IMG/VR virus record: IMGVR_UViG_2541047797_000007
DNA length: 40,315 bases
Reading direction: 5' to 3' (one strand)
Source: a virus
Lineage: Duplodnaviria > Heunggongvirae > Uroviricota > Caudoviricetes
Below the pieces are notes generated by a model that was not told the DNA's origin, searched no databases, and was given only the letters and a program-made list of their open reading frames with translations. Numbering within the stretch: the first letter of the stretch is position 1; each line of letters opens with the position of its first letter. Shown one piece after another: positions 3,159-33,632 of the stretch. The translations under genes were made by a program, and so were the position numbers.

Positions 3159-5621
3159 TCAATTCCCTGTTAATTGCAAAACTTGCTCTTCCAGCTTTTT
3201 AACCCTGCGTCTCATCATCGCAGATTCCAGAATCAGAGCCTCTTCATAACGGATACCGTAACATTCACCAGCCTCGACGGCTTCGCGTACCAGAACCTTT
3301 GTCTGTATAAGTGGGTAAACTCCTGCAGAATGCTCTTCTTCCGTCACATCCCTGTATTCTGCCGGGGTCTCATTCCACTTGTCATAACAGATAAATGCCA
3401 GTCGTGACACATCTATGCCTTCATTCTGAAATACACTGATAACATGCTGCGCAACTGCACCAAAGTGCCATCTTGCTCCGTCTTTACCTTTCACTTCGAT
3501 CCTGTCAAGGTACTGGTATGAAACCCATTCCACTCTTTCCCATGCGTCCAGTATTTTCTCATCAATAACCTCTGGAGCAGTCTTGAAACGCGCATCGGAC
3601 AGCACCGTAAACGCTGACTGGGTAAATCCCCCCGACCATGCACGACCAGCCAACCCAAGAGAATAAGTATTCGTTGTCGATGGTGTCATGGCTGAATCAG
3701 AAAACTGTATATATTCTGAATTTCCAGTAGATATTCGAATATTTCCATTTATTAGCGACATAGTGCCTTTAGTATTATCACTATTGAATAATTTCAATTG
3801 CGAACTTATACCGCCTCCCACAGCCAGAGATACATCGCCTTCAGCAAGCATTCTGAATTTATCTGCAGAAACAAGCGTCTGGTTAGCAAGGTTAAAATAT
3901 TTAACCCACCATTCAAAACGCCCTGACATAGTCCCAACGTACTGACCAAGCGCAGGGACGTGAACAACATTGCTATTTGTAGTGCCGTCTATACTGGAAA
4001 TACCAGTCACCGCTGATGCAGAACTCAGAATATTATTTCTGTCACCCGGATGTTTAATTTCAACAAAGTTCCTGATACACCCTTCCTCGAAGGTAACCAC
4101 GCCGGAAGAACTATACATGGGGAATATTGACGCATAATTACTGCGTGCAGCATCTAAGAAACGAATGGTTGTAGATGTCTGCAGATCTCCTGATTCATTT
4201 TTCCCATCACACCCAGTCATTAGAATATTACTGGCAATATTATTATTTCCCTGAACGGTGACGCCGTGCGCCTGCTTTGCGTCCGATTCAGAGTAATCAA
4301 CCAGCACATCCGAAATCAGGTTACCAGTCCCCTTGCCAACAACTACTGCGGCGTATTTTGGGTTGTTAGCCATTACACTGCTAATGATATTATTCGTTGG
4401 GGCAGTTTCCGTCTCAGTTCCATTGTAAACAACGTGCTGACACTCTTCACCAATAACATTGCTGACAATGTTATATTTTGCTGCTGTTTTAAGTTCCACT
4501 GCACCAAACTGAGGATAATTTCTGGCTATCACACCATCAATTAGCGTATTTTGCGATGAATCAAAAAGCACACAACCTGCTTTTTTATTATTTGCGAACC
4601 CTAAATACTCTCCTCTTATATCTCTAACAATGTAACCTGACGGAATACCATTATCCGGATAAGCGATCAAGCTAAATCCTGGTCCTCGCGTATTTGTAAA
4701 TCTGATATTTTTAACCGATACATCATGGCCACCTGAAAATGACACCTGGTGTCCCTGCACACTATCATCTGATTTATTTCCCATAATTGTTAGCGTACTA
4801 AGCATGCCACCATCGGGCATGTTAAAAACCAGATGATTACCATCTCTGTCATACTGTTTTATCGTTCCCCCACCTGTTCCGTACAAGCCACAACGTGAAA
4901 GAGAAACTAAAGATGTATTGAATACCCCTTCCGGAACAAAAACACTGCTAAACGAATGTAATGATTTTGTAAAAGCATCCTTGTTATCATTTAAGATTCC
5001 ATTTTGAGCTCCAAAATCCTTAATGCTGACACCATCACGCATCTTATCCTGGAACGTTCTGTATACCGCTCCAGAACCATACTGAATAAACCAACCAAAA
5101 CCACCAATAACTCCGGCGATTGCAGCATCGACATAATTACGCATTGAGCGATTATTTACAGCGTCCTGCTCAAGTGATGGATCGGCAAGGTTAGATATTC
5201 TGTTTTGCTTTGCATCGTAATATTTTGCAAGCAAAGATGGTTTCATCAATGCACGTCTGAACCACCCAAAACATCGCTGGATCAGCATCGTCAGGTAGTC
5301 AAATGCATCCTCATGAACTTCGGGGAAAAATTTTCCCTGATTGCGAAGATCAGTCTCCTGCACCACATCAAGCACACGCTCTATCGTGATTCGCCAGCCA
5401 GCAGCAAGCGGCGACGGAAGAACCACTGCACCGCCACTATAAGTTCCCGCCCCTGTTACCGTATAACCAGCATCCAGCACTAGTTTTGTAACGTTACCGT
5501 TAAGGTCAGACACCTGAACAACCAGGTCGGATTTTTTGAAAATACGGAAGGTATACGGAAATGATGTCGTAACGCCGTTACCTGTGTATTCGTTGTGGTC
5601 AACTTCGGTTGAGACCGTCAT
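3159..5621 (-). CDS. Tailspike / tail fiber with conserved N-terminal particle-binding domain, central beta-helix-like region and C-terminal intramolecular chaperone (peptidase S74-like) domain
   Basis: N-terminus MTVSTEVDHNEYTGNGVTTSFPYTF is a conserved phage tailspike anchor motif; Gly/Asn/Ser/Thr-rich central region; C-terminal roughly 150 aa (..LSDARFKT...GARWHFGAVAQ..) resembles the auto-cleaving chaperone domain. SD GGAG upstream of the ATG at 5621. Confidence 0.85.
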   Translation of the reverse strand: MTVSTEVDHNEYTGNGVTTSFPYTFRIFKKSDLVVQVSDLNGNVTKLVLDAGYTVTGAGTYSGGAVVLPSPLAAGWRITIERVLDVVQETDLRNQGKFFPEVHEDAFDYLTMLIQRCFGWFRRALMKPSLLAKYYDAKQNRISNLADPSLEQDAVNNRSMRNYVDAAIAGVIGGFGWFIQYGSGAVYRTFQDKMRDGVSIKDFGAQNGILNDNKDAFTKSLHSFSSVFVPEGVFNTSLVSLSRCGLYGTGGGTIKQYDRDGNHLVFNMPDGGMLSTLTIMGNKSDDSVQGHQVSFSGGHDVSVKNIRFTNTRGPGFSLIAYPDNGIPSGYIVRDIRGEYLGFANNKKAGCVLFDSSQNTLIDGVIARNYPQFGAVELKTAAKYNIVSNVIGEECQHVVYNGTETETAPTNNIISSVMANNPKYAAVVVGKGTGNLISDVLVDYSESDAKQAHGVTVQGNNNIASNILMTGCDGKNESGDLQTSTTIRFLDAARSNYASIFPMYSSSGVVTFEEGCIRNFVEIKHPGDRNNILSSASAVTGISSIDGTTNSNVVHVPALGQYVGTMSGRFEWWVKYFNLANQTLVSADKFRMLAEGDVSLAVGGGISSQLKLFNSDNTKGTMSLINGNIRISTGNSEYIQFSDSAMTPSTTNTYSLGLAGRAWSGGFTQSAFTVLSDARFKTAPEVIDEKILDAWERVEWVSYQYLDRIEVKGKDGARWHFGAVAQHVISVFQNEGIDVSRLAFICYDKWNETPAEYRDVTEEEHSAGVYPLIQTKVLVREAVEAGECYGIRYEEALILESAMMRRRVKKLEEQVLQLTGN

Positions 5622-5725
5622 GTTAAATCTCCAGATAGTCGCAGCACCCGTTGCGCCGCATATCTGGTTATTCTATTACCTGAAAAACCACATATGGATA
5701 GAAAGAGTATGAATACGAATAGATA

Positions 5726-5740
5726 TTACCTTTCGGGTAA
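5726..5740. promoter_or_regulatory. Operator-like site TTACCTTTCGGGTAA (TTACC-N5-GGTAA family)
   Basis: Perfect inverted-repeat half-sites, intergenic between the tailspike start and the plus-strand moron island. Confidence 0.6.
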
Positions 5741-5817
5741 TTTGCAAAACGTGCTGGATAGCAAACAAATTATTTGATACTGTATAAATATACAGTTATT
5801 GCATGGAGAAGATTAAG

Positions 5818-6075
5818 ATGCAGCAGTATCACTATCCACTGGAAGAGGGATTTACCGAAAGGATTCACACGCCGGGAGGCGTCAGGTCACTGGTGGAGGG
5901 ATCGCACTTGATGAAATTACTCCGGGATCTCGATAAGGATGGATTTAATGTCGATGGCCCACTTGCCGAACTGACTGCACTGATTAACTACGTCACCAGC
6001 TCACAGATGTCTATGCAGGATCTGCAAACACATCTCGACTATTGTGCCGAACAATTACGAAAACAAACCAGATAA
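5818..6075 (+). CDS. Small protein homologous to the C-terminal domain of the downstream antirepressor
   Basis: Residues RIHTPGGVRSLVEGSHLMKLLRDL...ELTALINYV...QTHLDY align with Ant C-terminus [24 protein letters not shown]...ELTTMFCYI...QTHAEY. Start chosen at the second ATG (5818), which has SD GGAGAAG; the ORF track starts at 5803. Confidence 0.55.
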   Translation: MQQYHYPLEEGFTERIHTPGGVRSLVEGSHLMKLLRDLDKDGFNVDGPLAELTALINYVTSSQMSMQDLQTHLDYCAEQLRKQTR

Positions 6076-6106
6076 GGTTTGCAATTACCAAATGGAGTGC
6101 TTATAT

Positions 6107-6121
6107 TTACCTTTGCGGTAA
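6107..6121. promoter_or_regulatory. Operator-like site TTACCTTTGCGGTAA
   Basis: Perfect TTACC-N5-GGTAA, extended dyad ATTTACC...GGTAAAT, in the leader between the Ant-domain paralog and ant. Confidence 0.6.
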
Positions 6122-6210
6122 ATTTACATCGCACTCCTCTTGTGCCATAGTAATCGGGCACTGGCAAAATCCAGTGCCGGGATTGGTCTCCCGGATTACT
6201 AAGTGGCGCA

Positions 6211-6236
6211 TACCACGCCAGACGTGGTTTTTTTAT
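6211..6236 (+). terminator. Intrinsic terminator / attenuator in the ant leader
   Basis: Hairpin ACCACG-CCAGA-CGTGGT followed by TTTTTTTA; preceded by further stem-loops at 6140-6200. Confidence 0.5.
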
Positions 6237-6392
6237 GCGTATAGCACAGTCATGCCAGAATTATGGTGGGCTGAATGGGGGTCCGAAAGGACGCCGGTAC
6301 CACTTAGGCCGGTAAGACCAACTCCGTTCAGTTCACCACCATCTGATTGGTCTCAGCGGTGGTGATGTAATTCGCTAAGTGGAGACGCCATC

Positions 6393-7049
6393 ATGAACGC
6401 TCAACTCATCCCCGTATTCAACGGCACTATATCTAACGAAACAGCCCTACTTTGTAATGCCCGCGATCTGCACGCTTTTTTAGGTGTTAAAAAGGTGTTT
6501 GCAGCATGGATTACAAATCGCATATCAGAATACGAATTCATTGAAAATCAAGACTATATTTTGCTTTCCAATTTGGGAAAGCAAACATCTGGTAGAGGCG
6601 GCCACAACCGCAAAGAGTACCACCTCACCCTTGATACAGCCAAAGAGCTGGCGATGGTCGAGCGTAACGAAAAAGGTCGTCAGGTACGACGCTACTTCAT
6701 TGAATGCGAGAAACGTTTAAGACAACAAGAAACAAAAGTGGAGAAGGTCTTGTCAGGCTTCATGCCCGCCATTATGGAGGCGATCAAGCTGGAAGACAAA
6801 AAAGAATACAGTGCCCCGCTGAAGCCCGGCTACCGCAGCCTGATTCATTCGCCGTCTGGTGTTCTCGGCCTGACGGAGAACTCACTGCTGATGAATCTGC
6901 TGAACCAGTTACAGGAAGACGGGCACGACGTATCGGGCGCGGCGGCGGAACTGACCACCATGTTCTGCTACATCGTCGGTGTGAGCAAATGCCTGCGTGA
7001 TATCCAGACCCACGCGGAGTACATCAACGACAAGGCAGGGTTCTTCTGA
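6393..7049 (+). CDS. Phage antirepressor (AntA/AntB-type N-terminal domain)
   Basis: N-terminal region [36 protein letters not shown] matches the AntA antirepressor signature as I recall it; SD GGAG upstream; opposite strand to the surrounding late genes. Confidence 0.75.
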
Positions 7050-7174
7050 CAGAACGGCGGCACAGGGATGTGCCTTTAAATAATTCTGTACGATTGCAGA
7101 CAGGGGGGTGAATAGAGTACTATTACCTTACGGGTGATCCATAGCGATTAGGCACCGATACAGGAGGAGCCCAC

Positions 7175-7207
7175 ATGAGAAAATTTGACGAGTACGAAGG
7201 CGTTTAA
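7175..7207 (+). CDS. Possible 10-codon leader mini-ORF (MRKFDEYEGV) with strong SD
   Basis: AGGAGG at 7162-7167, 7 nt upstream of the ATG at 7175; lies between two operator-like sites upstream of the 211-aa gene. Speculative. Confidence 0.25.
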   Translation: MRKFDEYEGV

Positions 7208-7223
7208 CATTCGGATAGTTCAT

Positions 7224-7238
7224 TTACCCTAATGGTAA
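7224..7238. promoter_or_regulatory. Operator-like site TTACCCTAATGGTAA
   Basis: Perfect TTACC-N5-GGTAA, extended ATTTACC...GGTAAAT, 41 bp upstream of the 7279 start; a one-mismatch copy at 7124-7138. Confidence 0.6.
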
Positions 7239-8007: not shown

Positions 8008-8008
8008 T

Positions 8009-8020
8009 GTGACATGTCAC
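8009..8020. repeat. Perfect 12-bp palindrome GTGACATGTCAC, copy 1 of 3
   Basis: Exact match read from the sequence; overlaps the stop of the 8017..8313 gene and abuts the terminator hairpin. Confidence 0.9.
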
Positions 8021-8313
8021 GCTCTTTTTCTGAATGATAGCCATTCGAAAAATGATGACATTCCACCGCAGACAATAGCAAAGATGATCCCACCAAAGAA
8101 GAGAAGGCCAGCCTGCCACCACTCCCACCGCCATACATCCACAGCGCCAACCATACCAACAATCGCTCCAACAAATGGAATATAGCTCACGATGAAAGCA
8201 ATGGGGGCTGCAATTATCCAGTGCAATCCCCACCATGATTCAAGCCCAGCCATAATTGCTGCCAACTGAAAAAGACCAACGACGATATAAACAATGAATC
8301 CTATAGCTTGCAT
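8017..8313 (-). CDS. Small integral membrane protein (98 aa), possible superinfection-exclusion/immunity-type moron
   Basis: Three hydrophobic helices, Trp-rich; sits alone between the ejection-protein genes and the antirepressor island. Function is inference only. Confidence 0.55.
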   Translation of the reverse strand: MQAIGFIVYIVVGLFQLAAIMAGLESWWGLHWIIAAPIAFIVSYIPFVGAIVGMVGAVDVWRWEWWQAGLLFFGGIIFAIVCGGMSSFFEWLSFRKRA

Positions 8314-22288: not shown

Positions 22289-22581
22289 TCCTGTTCACTG
22301 GCCTCTTTGGCCATCTTCAAATACTGTTCAGGGCAATGCGCCATAACGCGCTGAAACAGTTCCAGCGCCAGATTGCGTTGCCCCTCATTAAATGCCATTG
22401 CCATAGCGTCCATCGGTGAGATAGCGGAAAACACACGGCCTTTCTCCAGCACCGACCAGACAACGCGACGCCCCTGTTCACTGCTCATGACAAAGCGAAT
22501 GTCATCAATTTCACGCTGCGCCATGTCACGTTGCTTACGGGCGTTTTCTTCTTTCAGTTGATCGTCTTCGTAATCTGTCAT
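22285..22581 (-). CDS. Head-module hypothetical protein (98 aa)
   Basis: Coupled between portal and scaffold genes (ATGA overlaps on both sides). Confidence 0.5.
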   Translation of the reverse strand: MTDYEDDQLKEENARKQRDMAQREIDDIRFVMSSEQGRRVVWSVLEKGRVFSAISPMDAMAMAFNEGQRNLALELFQRVMAHCPEQYLKMAKEASEQE

Positions 22582-24257
22582 TGTGATTGCCCACCCTGAC
22601 CACTAACTGCATTCGCCATAGATGACAAAACACTCGGATCCGAAGTTTTAGCTTCGCTTAGCGTCTTGGCACCCTGTGCCGCCGCCATCCCCATCGCCAT
22701 CATTTGTTGCTGCTGTTGTTGCTGTGCCCGTTGCTGGCGAGCCTGCTCAACCTGTTCCTGCGGAACAATGACGGTTGGAGACACTCCGGACATATCAGCG
22801 AATGCATCGATCGCCTGATCAACGTTGAGTTTGTCGAGAGCTTCTGGTTTCGCTTGCGCAAGTTGACCAATGAAGTTAACCGTGGACGCCAGACTGGACA
22901 GGCCGATAGACTTCTGCGCCTGAGCCATGACGGAAATGTATTCGACCTTCAGGGGCATACCTTCCATCACGTCTGGCGGTGGCGGCAGCATGTTTTTACG
23001 CACCATCATCGAGAAAGCGCGGTCAATGAGAGGATTAAGACATTCGTCGTTCAGACGCTCCAGAACCGGACCCAACATCAGAAGTTTTTCTTCTTTCATT
23101 TCGATCACCGCTTCAACAGGCATCGAGCGGGTATTGATGTTCTGCAACATCATGAACAGATCGACAAAGTAGGCGCTGTTAATGATTTGACGAGTGTCCT
23201 GAATGTCTGCTACCAGATCTGCTGTACTGGGGTTAACCAGATAAGCAGGCCTGAAACCATCCTGACCAGTAATCTGATCGATATACGTGATGTCGCCAGG
23301 AAGAAGGGAGGCGCGCTGATTCTTGAGGGAAGTCGGAGCAACCATCGGCGGATTGGTGGCTTTATCAATCAACTGCGACTTGCGCTTCTGGAGAAGCTGC
23401 AATGCCTTAACAGGTCCAAGCGCCAGCATACCCGGGCATGATGATCCATAAACATCTTCGCCGTTAACTTCCCAGCGCGGAGCCATAATTGGAAACTCAT
23501 CGAATCCGGACTCACGCAACAACTTGTCGTTATCACCGCCAACCTCGTAATAAACCGATTTGAATGGCTTGTTCTTGCTATCCAGCTTCGATGTATCGCG
23601 GTCAATGTTCGGGTAAACCGAATGCATCACTTCAATCCACTTCTCGTAGGTGCCGCTTTCCCACATGCTTTTTACGGATTCGCTGACGTTATTTAGCCCG
23701 AACTCCTGAACAAGCTGACGAACAGTCATAGAGAACTTGCGAAAACAGGTGTCCACACTGCCACGAGGTGAGTTAGCCAGGTAGTAACTGCCTATCGGGA
23801 ATGGCATTGTGCGAATGATGTCCTCGTCATCCTCCAGTACCGCCATTGCACCGGTGCTGTATGTGCCGAGGCTTCCGTATAACTGCGGCAGCGACTGATA
23901 GAGATTCGACTTATTGAACATATCGTTCATGCGGTTCTGCACCGCCTCAAGCCACAACTTAACAGGGCCATAATCCATCATTTCAGGATCTGGCGTAGCC
24001 AGGCGAAACCACGGACGCGCGGGGCTTGTGATGCCTGACATCATGCCGCTGGCGAGAGTGCGCGCCGCCATAGTCCCGGTCGAATCAATAATGCGTGTAT
24101 TGCGTCGATCGTTACGGTTGACCTCAGAAGTCAGAAAGCGGGAACCACGCGGGTTGATGTAATCACTCAACTCGCGCCAGTGCGGCTCGAACGACTGACG
24201 CTCGCTTTCAAGTTGTGCGAACTGTTTGTTCAATCGCTCTTTAGTTGTTTCCGCCAT
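22578..24257 (-). CDS. Portal protein (559 aa)
   Basis: Size, position after terminase, and Q/A-rich acidic C-terminal tail; SD GGAG upstream of the ATG at 24257. Confidence 0.75.
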   Translation of the reverse strand: MAETTKERLNKQFAQLESERQSFEPHWRELSDYINPRGSRFLTSEVNRNDRRNTRIIDSTGTMAARTLASGMMSGITSPARPWFRLATPDPEMMDYGPVKLWLEAVQNRMNDMFNKSNLYQSLPQLYGSLGTYSTGAMAVLEDDEDIIRTMPFPIGSYYLANSPRGSVDTCFRKFSMTVRQLVQEFGLNNVSESVKSMWESGTYEKWIEVMHSVYPNIDRDTSKLDSKNKPFKSVYYEVGGDNDKLLRESGFDEFPIMAPRWEVNGEDVYGSSCPGMLALGPVKALQLLQKRKSQLIDKATNPPMVAPTSLKNQRASLLPGDITYIDQITGQDGFRPAYLVNPSTADLVADIQDTRQIINSAYFVDLFMMLQNINTRSMPVEAVIEMKEEKLLMLGPVLERLNDECLNPLIDRAFSMMVRKNMLPPPPDVMEGMPLKVEYISVMAQAQKSIGLSSLASTVNFIGQLAQAKPEALDKLNVDQAIDAFADMSGVSPTVIVPQEQVEQARQQRAQQQQQQQMMAMGMAAAQGAKTLSEAKTSDPSVLSSMANAVSGQGGQSQ

Positions 24258-24271
24258 TTCAATGACTCCGG

Positions 24272-24478
24272 TTACTGACCAAGCAGCGTTTTACCGCTGG
24301 TATTAGCGGTTGATGTGTCGCCCTGAGAACCGGTAAGCAGCGTAGAACTACGACCAGCAGCAGCGCGACGGCGACGTGTTTCTTCGTCGCGGGCATCAAC
24401 AACGGCGGCATCCTGCTCCTGTGGTGCTGCCTGAACTTCTGGTGTTGCAGGCACTGATGGTGAGCTACCCATGCACAT
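24272..24478 (-). CDS. Small hypothetical protein (68 aa) upstream of portal
   Basis: ATG with SD GGAG; its initiation region CGGAGTCATTGATATG is a near copy of the portal initiation region CGGAGTCATTGAAATG. Confidence 0.45.
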   Translation of the reverse strand: MCMGSSPSVPATPEVQAAPQEQDAAVVDARDEETRRRRAAAGRSSTLLTGSQGDTSTANTSGKTLLGQ

Positions 24479-24568
24479 ATCAATGACTCCGTACGCAATT
24501 AAATTATTACCAATTTAACCACATATGATTTATTTATCGTAGATAGTTGACATTTAACGCACGAATTA

Positions 24569-24583
24569 TTACCTTTCAGGTAA
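24569..24583. promoter_or_regulatory. Operator-like site TTACCTTTCAGGTAA in the terminase-portal gap
   Basis: Perfect TTACC-N5-GGTAA preceded by AATTAT as at the early promoter; a TTGACA hexamer lies at 24547-24552. Confidence 0.55.
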
Positions 24584-25052
24584 GCAAAGAGTTCATTCCG
24601 GTTATTAACCTGACTGGCTTGTCGTTAAATTGAACAGGTGGAGTGAGCTTTTATTTTGAGCAGTACGGCGTATGGCACATGCGCCGATAGCGGTCTGGAT
24701 ACGTTTAAGGGGCACCCTCACTTGCTCGAGCAAACGAACCAGGTAGCCGGAATGTGCAAGTCGAGCGGTTTTATTCCGCGCACGGGGATTCACCATCCCG
24801 GCGATTCGGTGTGACGCATCGGAAGAGACGAGGGTACAACGATGAGAGCATTTATGGAGCCGCGACAAAGTGTGGCGCCTTAACAGGCTAAGTGCTCTCA
24901 GCGTTGTGGCATTAGCTCAGTTGGACACTTATACAACATGAAGTTACAATGCCTGCATGCGGCGCTTATTCAGAATGGGCACTTCGATAAAACAAGTGCC
25001 ATCAATATTGCGGAAGCCATCAACGCTGGATTTAATGCCATTAAATAACACC

Positions 25053-25064
25053 GTGACATGTCAC
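25053..25064. repeat. Perfect 12-bp palindrome GTGACATGTCAC, copy 2 of 3
   Basis: Exact match; followed on the plus strand by the hairpin and T-run at 25069..25096, i.e. the same module as copies 1 and 3 but in the opposite orientation. Confidence 0.9.
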
Positions 25065-25068
25065 AAAC

Positions 25069-25096
25069 AGCCAGCCGATGAGCTGGCTTTGTTTTA
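25069..25096 (+). terminator. Intrinsic terminator on the plus strand (antisense to the late operon)
   Basis: Hairpin AGCCAGC-CGATGA-GCTGGCT followed by TTGTTTTAT. Confidence 0.6.
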
Positions 25097-25138
25097 TCCT
25101 CATCAGAGGATATCAACGACATTATCCCCACCAGCGGA

Positions 25139-26614
25139 TTAAGCATAGGGATCGTAATCTGTGATGGCCTTGCCTTGCTGGTTCTGCTGCCCGGGAATTC
25201 GCAGACGCTTCGACACAGGAAAAGCAAACGTCAGCAGTAGCGCATCGCCTTTACCCGGCGAACGCCCAAGCCGCTCCTTGATATCTTCCTTCGGTTCGAT
25301 AACGATTTTACCGTCCACGCGAACTTTGTACTCTGCCGCCGACAGGTCGTCTGCAGTTTCCTGGTCATCCAGCATGCCGCCCAGCCTCAGCCATGTCTTA
25401 CATGAGTTGAACATCTCCCCACGCTTGTTGAGCATCTGCGGGTCAGTAGACGCGCCACCGAACGGAACAAGTTGCCATGTACGACCCCAGCCGTCACCGA
25501 TTGACTTCAGACCAGTTCCGTAACCGAAGTCGATGAACACTGCGTCAGCCTGGTACTGGTCTTCAAAGTCAGCGATACGCTTCGCCATAATCAGATCGTC
25601 AGTGGTCTTGTTGCCAGTCCACAGCACCTTACTGTGCAGCCCCTGCCGCAGGTATATCACAGCGTCATCAACGCCTGAGTATGCCGGGTCAACGCCGATT
25701 ATCACCGGAGCATGTGCAACCTGCGCAGCGGTGACCACCCGTTTCATTGCCTCGTCAGTAAGTCCGGTAGGGATAAACTGCAATTCAGATGCATCCGGGA
25801 ATATGCCGCGCACACGGATTTTAACGAAGTCGCTGTCTTCCCCGTAGTCATCAACCCATTTCTGCAACTGCTGTTTGTTGGTGCCTTCCACCGTCCGGCT
25901 GTCAATCTGCGCAGTTTTCCAGCGGTGTTTATATTTGCGGAAACATTCGCGGAAACGTCCGGTATTACGCGTCGGGTTTCCGAACGCCACCCAGATAATC
26001 TCAGTGTCTTCGTCCGTTAGCGCACCCTCGGCAACTTCCCACACCAGATCCGCAATGTTCGACGCTTCATCGAATACCACGATGATGCGTTTGCGCTCGT
26101 TGTGTAGTCCGGCGAATGCCTCAGTGTTGTGCTCAGACCAGGGTATTGCGTCAGCTCGCCACCGCTTGTCGTGTCCAGGATCATTGCTGTACATCGCGGT
26201 AGCGGTACAGGTAAACCAGTCTTTCGTGATAGCAAGGTTCGACCACTTGATAATTTCCGGCCAGGTCTTCGTTCGTAGCTGGTTGTCGGTGTTGGCGGTC
26301 ACCACGACCTTACAATCCTCGCAAGTGGACATGCCCCAGTTGATCAGCATTGAGATGAATGCGGATTTACCAATACCGTGACCCGAAGCACGTGCCAGCA
26401 TAAGCGGCTGATAGCGCGTCTCTGGATTCTGCAGGTGATCACGTATCTCTCGGAACGCATCAGCCTGCCACTTACGTGGGCCGGTAGCATGTGCCAGTTC
26501 AGTCCCCTCTTCCCCCCACGGGAACGCATAGAGGGCATAGCCAAGCGGATCGTGAGTGAACCCTGCAATATCCTCGATCAACTGCTCTTCAGGAGATAAC
26601 GCTGTATCTGTCAC
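25139..26614 (-). CDS. Terminase large subunit
   Basis: Walker A-like motif (LARASGHGIGKSA) near the N-terminus and an acidic-residue nuclease-like C-terminal half; GTG start overlapping the terS stop. Confidence 0.85.
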   Translation of the reverse strand: MTDTALSPEEQLIEDIAGFTHDPLGYALYAFPWGEEGTELAHATGPRKWQADAFREIRDHLQNPETRYQPLMLARASGHGIGKSAFISMLINWGMSTCEDCKVVVTANTDNQLRTKTWPEIIKWSNLAITKDWFTCTATAMYSNDPGHDKRWRADAIPWSEHNTEAFAGLHNERKRIIVVFDEASNIADLVWEVAEGALTDEDTEIIWVAFGNPTRNTGRFRECFRKYKHRWKTAQIDSRTVEGTNKQQLQKWVDDYGEDSDFVKIRVRGIFPDASELQFIPTGLTDEAMKRVVTAAQVAHAPVIIGVDPAYSGVDDAVIYLRQGLHSKVLWTGNKTTDDLIMAKRIADFEDQYQADAVFIDFGYGTGLKSIGDGWGRTWQLVPFGGASTDPQMLNKRGEMFNSCKTWLRLGGMLDDQETADDLSAAEYKVRVDGKIVIEPKEDIKERLGRSPGKGDALLLTFAFPVSKRLRIPGQQNQQGKAITDYDPYA

Positions 26615-27207
26615 TGATTACCATCCTGACGTTCTTTGAGTCGCTTCCTGGCTGCTGCTATGCGATCAGCAATTGTCACATTCACATTAACATCCAGACG
26701 TTCTTTGAACGCGTTGACATCAACATGCTTACCAATCAGCTCAAGGTTCTTCACCTTGTCAGGCCATTTAATTTTTTTGAGGATTGTCTCTATCGAATCC
26801 TCGTTCATGTTCATGATGGTCGATGACAGATCAAAGCCACTAAGCGTAGTGCGCCAGATTTTCGGCCACTCACGGATTGGTTTAAGGCTCCCATCGTCGT
26901 TGAGGATGTCGATCACGTCCATCTGGTCGATCTCCACCAGGCGCATGAGAACGTAATCAGCACTGACGCGCATTCGTTTGTTGCGCTCCTCCATCAACTC
27001 GGCAATCCGTTTTTGAATGCGTTCATCGCGCATCATGACGCTGGCTTTAACTGCCGCTGTATTTGGGGAGAATCCTGCGTTAATCGCTGCCTGAGTCTGG
27101 TTTTCAGGCGTTTTGATGTATGACTGGCAATAAGCCTCCTGCATTGCTGTTAGTGGCTTAAATTGCGTTGATTTGCGTTTATAGGTTTTAGGTTCAGCAG
27201 GCATCAT
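26611..27207 (-). CDS. Terminase small subunit
   Basis: Directly upstream of and overlapping the large subunit gene. Start placed at the tandem internal ATG codons (27207) because the track N-terminal extension runs through the upstream terminator hairpin. Confidence 0.7.
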   Translation of the reverse strand: MMPAEPKTYKRKSTQFKPLTAMQEAYCQSYIKTPENQTQAAINAGFSPNTAAVKASVMMRDERIQKRIAELMEERNKRMRVSADYVLMRLVEIDQMDVIDILNDDGSLKPIREWPKIWRTTLSGFDLSSTIMNMNEDSIETILKKIKWPDKVKNLELIGKHVDVNAFKERLDVNVNVTIADRIAAARKRLKERQDGNQ

Positions 27208-27249
27208 AACCACCGTGGTAATAGTTACCGTTGTGGTAATAGTACCATG

Positions 27250-27276
27250 CAAAATAAAGCCGCCATAGTTGGCGGC
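27250..27276 (-). terminator. Intrinsic terminator immediately upstream of the packaging/late operon
   Basis: Minus strand: GCCGCC-AACTAT-GGCGGC hairpin followed by TTTATTTTG, about 40 nt upstream of the terS start. Confidence 0.65.
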
Positions 27277-27316
27277 AGTATCCAAAACCGTCAAATTCAT
27301 CATGCATAATCTACTC

Positions 27317-27328
27317 GTGACATGTCAC
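27317..27328. repeat. Perfect 12-bp palindrome GTGACATGTCAC, copy 3 of 3
   Basis: Exact match; overlaps the stop of the 27325..27672 gene and lies 40 nt upstream (minus strand) of the terminator at 27250..27276. Confidence 0.9.
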
Positions 27329-27672
27329 ACTATTAATTTCGTTTCATGCCAGCCTTTAGTCACCCAGCATTGCGAGTCACCATTACACGGGCATGAATTA
27401 ACTGGAACTCTCTCGCCGCACTTACCGCAACGTTTTCTGCTGATCGATTTTATACGCCCGCGCACACGTGCATCATCCTGGCGGATCAGCAGCGCGATGT
27501 ACTCGGCCATTTCATAGGGATCGCGACCAGGGCGCCGGGCGGCGCAGTTCCGCGCCAGCATTTCCTGCTCCTGCTTATCCAGCACCAGTTCAATTTTGCG
27601 CTCACCGGCGGCGGACTGCCGAGCGCGCTGCGCGGCTTTGCGTTCTGCGGGGGATTTAGCCACGAATCGCAC
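27325..27672 (-). CDS. Candidate late-gene regulator: basic N-terminal region plus C-terminal Cys-rich zinc-ribbon-like motif
   Basis: C-terminus CGKCGERVPVNSCPCNGDSQC; basic N-terminus (RFVAKSPAERKAAQRARQ) loosely resembles small RHH/CopB-like DNA-binding proteins. Occupies the position held by Q in lambdoid phages. GTG start; start uncertain. Confidence 0.45.
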   Translation of the reverse strand: MRFVAKSPAERKAAQRARQSAAGERKIELVLDKQEQEMLARNCAARRPGRDPYEMAEYIALLIRQDDARVRGRIKSISRKRCGKCGERVPVNSCPCNGDSQCWVTKGWHETKLIV

Positions 27673-33589: not shown

Positions 33590-33617
33590 TTGACATCAAA
33601 CCAGATACGCATAATTA
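33590..33617 (+). promoter_or_regulatory. Candidate sigma-70 early-left promoter
   Basis: TTGACA at 33590-33595 and TAATTA/ATAATT at 33611-33617 (15-16 bp spacer), with an operator site overlapping the -10 and start region. Confidence 0.55.
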
Positions 33618-33632
33618 TTACCTCAACGGTAA
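33618..33632. promoter_or_regulatory. Operator-like site TTACCTCAACGGTAA overlapping the early-left promoter
   Basis: Perfect TTACC-N5-GGTAA directly abutting the -10 element. Confidence 0.6.

Follow-up and report, generated by a model that had tools for sequence, protein, structure and literature searches.

A predicted structured RNA in the probable remnant of an accessory transcription unit between terL and gp3 of an epsilon15-like prophage

The terL–gp3 spacer

We analyzed the spacer at positions 24479–25138 of the IMG/VR record IMGVR_UViG_2541047797_000007, an epsilon15/phiV10-like prophage; the whole stretch of 40,315 nucleotides is referred to below as the window. The spacer is 660 bp long and, according to the list of open reading frames (ORFs), is the only long junction in the late operon of the minus strand: the remaining junctions overlap or do not exceed 51 nt. 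It is bordered by the gene of the large terminase subunit (terL) and by a small gp3-like late gene. Very probably, the spacer is the remnant of an accessory plus-strand transcription unit that lay between terL and gp3 and opposed the late operon. Its part at 24660–24909 is predicted, from comparative evidence, to be a conserved plus-strand structured RNA gene of a new family outside Rfam 15. A preliminary description made from the letters of the window had placed a gap of about 640 bp between terminase and portal, in an operon whose other junctions overlap or are under 50 bp; the gap and the tight packing were found as described, with the limit of 51 nt, but the left border is the gp3-like gene and not the portal gene. 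The following features were identified in the spacer and at its borders.

24272–24478, minus strand: gp3-like late gene of 68 aa, the left border (ORF list; phrog_831, E = 2.4e-36; annotated homologues in phiV10, epsilon15 and CE10)
24547–24583, plus strand: putative repressor-controlled promoter, with -35 hexamer TTGACA (24547–24552), 17-nt spacer and -10 hexamer TACCTT (24570–24575)
24569–24583: predicted operator TTACCTTTCAGGTAA, a perfect copy overlapping the -10 hexamer and the inferred start site
24584–24659, plus strand: leader that separates the inferred start site from the conserved RNA, with 99% identity to phiV10 and CE10; partly conserved, in Uetakevirus-type copies only
24660–24835, plus strand: conserved 5' domain of the RNA (about 175 nt) with helices P1 (24666–24686), P2 (24691–24697/24740–24749), P4 (24785–24799) and P5 (24817–24833)
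24835–24908, plus strand: long 3' hairpin P6, with a covarying base (24835–24852/24891–24908) enclosing a 38-nt insert (24853–24890)
24906–24927, plus strand: stub of tRNA-Arg(UCU), the first 22 nt (acceptor 5' arm and most of the D arm); intact in CE10 and phiV10
24925–24927: deletion junction with a 3-nt ACA microhomology; 547 bp (L001 2229–2775, see below) are absent from the window
24926–25048, plus strand: 3' remnant of a cargo gene, in frame, the last 40 codons and stop of a 139-aa phrog_4846 gene; 39 of 40 residues identical to CE10_RS15115
25052–25065: 14-bp palindrome CGTGACATGTCACA, which the window contains three times without mismatch
25069–25097, plus strand: intrinsic terminator T3, a G+C-rich stem (25069–25088) followed by TTGTTTTAT; the same terminator is found in CE10 and is annotated on the other strand in phiV10
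25139–26614, minus strand: TerL, the right border (ORF list; homologues annotated in phiV10 and epsilon15)

Intact cassette of the relatives and the deletion in the window

The region is 96–99% identical to phiV10, related Uetakevirus phages and prophages in hundreds of E. coli genomes, and about 80% identical to Salmonella phage epsilon15; window positions 24200–24927 share 99.7% identity with phiV10. In all close relatives the corresponding stretch is about 550 bp longer (about 1.2 kb in total). Its intact form contains, in this order, the operator-overlapped promoter, the structured RNA of about 250 nt, tRNA-Arg(UCU), terminators T1 and T2, a ribosome-binding site (RBS) with a small variable cargo gene, and T3. 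In E. coli CE10 (locus L001), the tRNA-Arg and a 139-aa gene are located between gp3 and terL, both opposite to the late-gene strand. Phage phiV10 (L002) shares the tRNA-Arg (ARAGORN, anticodon UCU) and has another small gene there (PF13876, Phage_gp49_66), together with an annotated terminator. For epsilon15, the depositors of the record marked sites for the repressor, IHF and RNase III in the same spacer. T1, located after the tRNA in intact Uetakevirus copies, has the form GGCGGTG...CACCGCC-CTTTTTAC with about -22 kcal/mol in a ViennaRNA scan; T2 is GCCCGGGTCGCCGGGC-ATTTTTTT, and the RBS and ATG of the cargo gene are situated directly 3' of it.

Window positions 24200–24927 align to L001 1501–2228, and positions 24925–25400 align to L001 2776–3251. 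The 547-bp deletion removed nucleotides 23–77 of the tRNA, T1, T2 and codons 1–99 of the cargo gene, so that tRNA nucleotides 1–22 now run into the final 40 codons of the gene. ARAGORN detected no complete tRNA in the window and was positive at the homologous place in CE10 and phiV10; a full-length phrog_4846 ORF of about 139 aa was also absent from the window, which keeps the last 40 codons only. The intact CE10-type cargo protein, ancestral type of the window, belongs to phrog_4846 (E = 5e-89). It was matched by no Pfam or PADLOC model, including PF13876, the family of the phiV10 and epsilon15 cargo proteins (E = 6e-35 and 4e-37, respectively).

The spacer thus looks non-coding because it consists of an RNA gene and gene stumps. 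A decayed gene, which was among the readings of the preliminary description, is correct for the right-hand third, where relatives have an intact tRNA-Arg and a 139-aa gene, but not for the remainder. Similarly, the earlier view that the candidate ORFs translate to junk does not hold for 24926–25048, where the last 40 codons of a real gene remain. Relatives account for the whole of the gap, and comparison with them separates debris from the part still under constraint; a seemingly empty stretch between tightly packed genes can be an accessory slot that has been scarred.

An 80-nt probe across the deletion junction was searched in 5426 complete E. coli genomes and 50,697 phage records. Its halves matched separately in 492 of these E. 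coli genomes and 20 of these phage records, and the joined form was never found in either set; the deletion is therefore private to the window sequence, unless it is an assembly error.

The cargo slot of Uetakeviruses was variable: it is occupied by the PF13876 gene (phiV10, epsilon15), by the phrog_4846 gene (CE10 and the ancestor of the window), or by genes for predicted membrane/coiled-coil proteins of about 200–300 aa, seen as downstream ORFs in loci L007, L021 and L059. The slot behind T1 and T2 behaves as an exchangeable cargo site. The cargo proteins were also considered as known defence proteins, and no convincing PADLOC hit was obtained. PhiV10p04 (83 aa, phrog_4647; L002 2213–2464, minus strand) runs antisense across tRNA-Arg and T1 and is probably a spurious gene call propagated into a PHROG family.

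Structure and conservation of the RNA

Sequences related to 24660–24909 were gathered with conserved motifs, and 23 versions differing by at least 1.5% were aligned, the hypervariable insert of P6 being replaced by GAAA. The RNAalifold consensus contained 41 pairs in six helices, 15 of which (of the 41 pairs) had changes on both sides. Paired cells amounted to 98.3%, compared with 91.9% in shuffles and 30–43% in slid-partner controls, a percentage inflated because the structure was derived from the same alignment; the double changes are not inflated in this way. The covariation score was 0.288 versus 0.03–0.07 and was reached by none of 500 shuffles. Many pairs alternate between G-C and G-U and are compatible with the plus strand only. 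Covariance model R1 gave 185.6 bits over 24660–24909 on the plus strand, the window sequence being one of its training rows, and 13.6 bits on the minus strand, where it matched a palindromic piece. The same interval was recovered by an nhmmer profile. Single-sequence folding energy (z of about -2.4 to -2.5 on both strands) was uninformative, because it was alike on the two strands.

The helices of the 5' domain are connected by the invariant joining blocks GGTAGCCGGAATGTGCAAGTC and GGCGATTCGGTGTGAC. The base of P6 covaries, for example from CAACGATGAGAGCA/TGCTCTCAGCGTTG to GTAGTGAAGAGAGCA/TGCTCTCTTCACTAC, and its insert is swapped for unrelated sequences of 37–66 nt in other copies; the 5' domain also occurs without P6. 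Two hairpins already pointed out in the preliminary description belong to this fold: GGGAT-TCACC-ATCCC (24785–24799) is P4, and GAGAGCA...TGCTCTC is the base of P6, both with compensatory changes in relatives. A24818, a change specific to the window, breaks one pair of P5; the promoter, leader and RNA are otherwise intact.

No reading frame is open through all copies of the RNA, and the indels among copies are not multiples of three. A hidden small protein was rejected on the former ground; a 9-codon ORF in the insert of the window is unconserved. The P6 insert was considered as a guide or antisense sequence: BLAST of the 23 distinct inserts against about 1.6 Mb of related phage DNA and the window gave chance-level matches of 13–19 nt only. 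The Rfam scan proposed earlier was run with Rfam 15. Over the whole window, isrK and C4 antisense RNA alone passed the gathering threshold, both within 6158–6343; over 24400–25200 with E up to 10, three chance-level hits appeared, none inside 24660–24909. A second copy of the RNA was found neither in the window nor in mEp460. With a covarying multi-helix fold present in about one third of complete E. coli genomes, there is a strong case for entering the RNA as a new family.

Distribution and genomic contexts

A distant BLAST search of 24479–24927 against phages showed that 24665–24909 is about 82% identical to unannotated DNA of unrelated lambdoid siphoviruses, namely mEp460, cdtI, Ayreon, 2H10, Stx2c phages and ECOR prophages. 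Two conserved motifs retrieved more than 150 IMG/VR contigs. Among Enterobacterales species genomes 18 matches were genuine, and the four motif matches outside Enterobacterales failed the profile test; the family is so far confined to this order. In distant BLAST, the 5' domain was detected at 2464 places (554 on plasmids) in 1833 of the 5426 complete E. coli genomes, with up to four places per genome; none of the matches listed coincided with an annotated feature. The interval 24660–24909 shows 97–99% identity across hundreds of genomes.

In the rows examined (88 phage records and 2112 E. coli replicon records matched), the RNA was annotated as nothing or as a doubtful small ORF; the epsilon15, phiV10 and CE10 records examined leave it unannotated. 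In the literature searched, from which most subscription papers are missing (those on the epsilon15 and phiV10 genomes among them), no published description was found. No copy was present in E. coli K-12 CPS-53 or in phage LLS. Epsilon15 has only the first 60 nt or so of the RNA (L003 3042–3102; P1 and the start of P2) and lacks tRNA-Arg; at this slot even the type phage of the genus is thus derived by deletion.

Several loci deserve separate mention. The IMG/VR lambdoid contig L015 carries two copies of the 5' domain (4807–4962 and 4000–4157, on the minus strand of the locus, about 800 nt apart), which flank an oppositely oriented sieB (superinfection exclusion) downstream of cI. Three contigs of Phytobacter ursingii ATCC 27989 (L180, L197 and L198) have one RNA copy each. 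A full-scoring copy on the 1753-bp contig L196 belongs to a metagenome-assembled genome labelled Bacillota, probably through a binning error.

The RNA is shared by three kinds of unrelated temperate element. In Uetakeviruses it is located between gp3/portal and tRNA-Arg. In lambdoid phages it follows cI on the same strand, past the terminator of cI and a palindrome-overlapped promoter, and heads the early-left operon, whose genes behind the RNA encode DUF2303/YfdQ, RdgC and similar proteins; cI was immediately upstream on the same strand in 78 of 145 loci. In phage-plasmids of about 90–105 kb, the order is an SPFH gene, tRNA(CAU), the 5' domain and, about 100 nt further on, dnaB. T1 and its flanks are homologous between the Uetakevirus and lambdoid copies.

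It is very improbable that nothing functional is left and that the spacer is merely decayed coding sequence or a DNA-level site (pac, origin or attachment site). The right-hand third is indeed gene debris, and the deletion shows that the region is dispensable to the prophage of the window. However, the near-identity of 24660–24909 in hundreds of genomes, the compensatory pairs with G-U on one strand only and the lack of a conserved frame argue against this explanation. The element also recurs beside cI or dnaB in phages whose packaging modules are unrelated, which likewise speaks against the packaging recognition region suggested previously.

The variety of 3' parts brings up a riboswitch-like function, in which the 5' domain, as an aptamer for a tRNA or for a metabolite of the host, would gate early phage genes via variable downstream expression platforms. 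A conserved domain of about 170 nt followed by diverse 3' parts (long hairpin, terminators or direct RBS), invariant unpaired junction nucleotides and the location in a 5' untranslated region are consistent with it. Against this, the strong terminator lies about 230 nt past the domain with tRNA or other sequence in between, whereas in known transcriptional riboswitches the two are adjacent or overlapping; the downstream genes have no common metabolic theme, and no Rfam riboswitch family matched. We regard a riboswitch as improbable.

The tRNA neighbours bear on a further alternative. The tRNA-Arg begins exactly at the end of the RNA in 34 of 164 loci, and the 3' end of tRNA(CAU) lies 3–4 nt from the conserved 5' flank in more than 20 phage-plasmid loci. 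The RNA could be a stand-alone, trans-acting stable RNA of about 250 nt, released by tRNA-processing enzymes (RNase P at the 3' end in Uetakeviruses, tRNA 3' trimming at the 5' end in phage-plasmids) and binding, early in the lytic cycle, to a protein or RNA of host or phage, for example as a decoy, an anti-defence RNA or a ribonucleoprotein component; downstream genes would then have their own expression signals. Besides the abutting tRNAs, this is favoured by a conserved module that spans the promoter to the homologous T1 and moves among unrelated phages, by invariant joining nucleotides and several helices suggestive of a tertiary fold, and by the swapping of distal P6 for unrelated sequences, as in a specificity module. 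The phage-plasmid, L136 and L138 contexts are difficult to reconcile with it, since an ORF directly follows the 5' domain there or P6/T1 is lacking; nor is there a constant protein neighbour to serve as partner, and the variable inserts lack above-chance matches in the related phage DNA. A stand-alone RNA is nearly as likely as the cis-acting leader proposed below, though less likely than not.

A constant partner was also sought among the neighbours. The tRNA was rejected in this role, as tRNA-Arg followed the RNA in those 34 loci only. So was a protein such as a reverse transcriptase, recombinase or nuclease, because the neighbours vary (cI, SieB, DUF2303, RdgC, SPFH, DnaB, portal); retron, bridge-RNA and omega-RNA readings are disfavoured for lack of a constant protein neighbour.

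Predicted promoter, operator and terminators

The motif TTACC-N5-GGTAA had 10 perfect copies in the window and 14 copies with at most one mismatch, versus 0.62 expected, and the copies cluster at the regulatory regions of the window. The copy at 24569–24583, a 15-bp inverted repeat, is predicted to be a Uetakevirus repressor operator. The homologous position of epsilon15 is annotated as a repressor site by the depositors' prediction, and a parallel promoter-operator layout (TTGACA ... AATTAT-TTACC) is present at 33590–33632. Operator-like palindromes also overlap the promoter of the RNA in mEp460, Ayreon and Stx2c phages, whose repressors are different; a common theme appears to be that the resident repressor would shut the predicted promoter. 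Since the predicted operator overlaps the -10 hexamer and the inferred start site, the RNA should be silent in the lysogen and appear soon after induction, among the first transcripts.

The palindrome CGTGACATGTCACA had three perfect copies in the window (0.28 expected): at 27316–27329, 13 nt upstream of the terS start; at 25052–25065, just past the terL end; and at 8008–8021, just past the last late gene. From these positions, the palindrome may be bound by a regulator of the late genes or may mark the boundaries of the late operon. The operator-like site with a TTGACA hexamer, the second palindrome copy and the plus-strand terminator listed in the preliminary description were all recovered in this analysis. 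As to the late operon itself, the portal gene (22578–24257, minus strand) is next after the gp3-like gene, TerS is encoded at 26611–27303 (minus strand), and late genes continue on the minus strand down to about 8509.

Two other groups of operators were observed. Within the first 100 nt or so of the terS coding sequence, 27207–27239 contains two repressor-operator copies (one perfect, one with one mismatch), where the repressor might block late transcription directly. On the plus strand at 6158–6343, isrK (6158–6234, 67.7 bits) and C4 antisense RNA (6259–6343, 61.2 bits) lie side by side, both at Rfam gathering level, within the operator-rich stretch 5494–7238; five TTACC-N5-GGTAA copies surround the pair. 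By its sequence this stretch resembles an immI-like region for antirepressor control of the P1/P7 type, here in an epsilon15-like prophage.

An antisense RNA was also considered, pairing with late-operon mRNA in the terL–gp3 spacer of Uetakeviruses, where the unit and the late operon converge; it would act by convergent transcription, RNase III cleavage or uncoupling of terminase and portal. The RNase III and IHF sites annotated in the epsilon15 spacer are in line with this, and T3 could work in both directions. On the other hand, sequence and fold are kept in lambdoid phages and phage-plasmids without such opposite-strand transcription, the covariation keeps intramolecular helices and not a target duplex, and most of the RNA is lost in epsilon15. 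A Uetakevirus antisense function thus seems quite unlikely; the antisense RNA of the preliminary description is right in that the RNA is antisense to the late operon here, but it is antisense to nothing in lambdoid phages and phage-plasmids.

A cis-acting leader as the proposed function

In lambdoid copies, the first ORF of the early-left operon comes after T1 and a weaker second terminator, with no ORF before the terminators, and the promoter scan called no promoter between T1/T2 and the first ORF. No N gene is annotated in mEp460, which has a single RNA copy. In other contexts, the 5' domain runs directly into an ORF or dnaB without a strong terminator, which is counted in favour of a cis-acting leader. 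Genes behind terminators, and the only operator-controlled promoter upstream of a conserved RNA, are the layout of putL in phage HK022 (PMC9378689). For this reason readthrough in cis was ranked first among the functions considered: as a cis-acting leader, the RNA may enable polymerase to pass the terminators behind it, by a logic like that of put and without put homology, a tentative reading that is somewhat less likely than not. Taken jointly, the cassette and deletion anatomy and this mechanism are our best explanation, although one that we hold with slightly more doubt than confidence. That the RNA of about 250 nt represents a new class of RNA-only processive antiterminator, an analogue of HK022 put with an unrelated, larger fold, is a doubtful extension. 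If true, such an antiterminator would serve N-less lambdoid phages, epsilon15-like podoviruses and phage-plasmids of about 100 kb, carrying early transcription through built-in terminators.

According to this proposal, inactivation of the repressor would let the promoter fire, the nascent RNA would fold and act in cis on its own transcription complex or transcript, and transcription would proceed through T1 and T2 to the genes behind. In Uetakevirus copies, tRNA processing would trim the 3' end of the RNA. In the window, where the RNA is probably still made, the transcript would extend from about 24583 to T3 (about 25097), or about 515 nt, with no functional cargo left to control. A transcript of this length is expected in the deleted copy only, because the tRNA processing (RNase P) site, T1 and T2 are gone. 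Its agreement with the roughly 500 nt guessed in the preliminary description is an accident of the deletion, the conserved RNA itself being about 250 nt. Of the repressor-controlled regulatory RNA imagined there, a predicted conserved plus-strand RNA behind a putative operator-overlapped promoter stands, but not its production in the lysogen, where the operator predicts repression.

A number of observations weigh against the cis-acting leader. The promoter at 24547–24583 is only inferred, because its -10 hexamer is weak and the scan did not call it. The motif blocks are invariant by design, as the sequences were fished with those motifs, and the rows of the alignment carry GAAA in place of the variable insert. 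There is one RNA copy per phage and no copy on the early-right (PR) side, unlike put. Epsilon15 is viable with its stump of about 60 nt and its cargo gene still behind a terminator, so the RNA is dispensable there. In Uetakeviruses, a terminator-resistant polymerase would pass T3 into the antisense strand of terL. Promoter, RNA and T1 together also have the look of an RNA gene complete in itself, and a tRNA abuts the end of the RNA in two contexts, as expected of a stable RNA cut from a precursor. A boxA/nut reading was rejected: the P6 3' arm and L138 are boxA-like, but the motif is neither consistent nor enriched.

Many lambdoid phages have neither an N protein nor a recognisable put RNA. 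With an RNA predicted to be transcribed first from a repressor-controlled early-left promoter and terminators behind it, the question of antitermination in N-less phages becomes directly testable.

Comparison with known systems

The C4 RNA of P1/P7 and the CI RNA of P4 are antisense immunity RNAs of 70–80 nt, made in the lysogen and cut from a longer precursor by tRNA-processing enzymes. The RNA of the window resembles them as a phage RNA possibly cut from a longer precursor, RNase P processing being suggested here by the abutting tRNA alone; in contrast to them, it is larger, has no match to the C4 model and is predicted from its operator to be off in the lysogen. GOLLD and ROOL are structured RNAs of phages and prophages, often located beside tRNA genes, of about 600–800 nt and mainly from Firmicutes and other phyla; GOLLD is expressed in the lytic phase. 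The RNA described here is likewise a structured (pro)phage RNA, but it is about 250 nt long, has so far been found in Enterobacterales, and the GOLLD and ROOL models of Rfam were unmatched in the spacer.

The terL–gp3 slot of epsilon15 and phiV10 (PhiV10p03, epsilon15 ABK13674, tRNA-Arg) agrees with that of the window in locus, orientation, promoter/operator region and terminator. It differs in its PF13876 cargo, whereas the ancestor of the window carried a phrog_4846 gene, as CE10 does, and the window has the 547-bp deletion.

A put-like mechanism was suggested only, in a 2025 paper, for the N-less lambdoid phage LLS (PMC12315714). In LLS (L201 31731–32358), cI is followed by about 630 nt without genes and then by yfdP-like and DUF2303 genes, the same layout as in mEp460. 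This spacer had no match to the RNA model and may hold a different leader at the same position.

The put RNA of HK022 is about 70 nt long and forms two stems (PMC9378689), whereas the RNA of the window has about 250 nt and at least six helices. No homology to put was found with the nhmmer profile and covariance model R1, which detected the RNA family neither in the HK022 early region nor in HK639, including its annotated putL-like RNA. The family has one copy per phage where put has two, and it also occurs outside early-left (PL) leaders: the PL-side position is found in mEp460, Ayreon and Stx2c phages, which have no PR-side copy, and the Uetakevirus and phage-plasmid contexts differ. In spite of these differences, the proposed logic is that of put, a nascent RNA acting in cis on RNA polymerase. 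Like HK022 putL/putR and the HK639 putL-like RNAs, the lambdoid copies are located where they would be transcribed first after an operator-controlled early-left promoter of N-less phages, with terminators beyond (PMC9378689).

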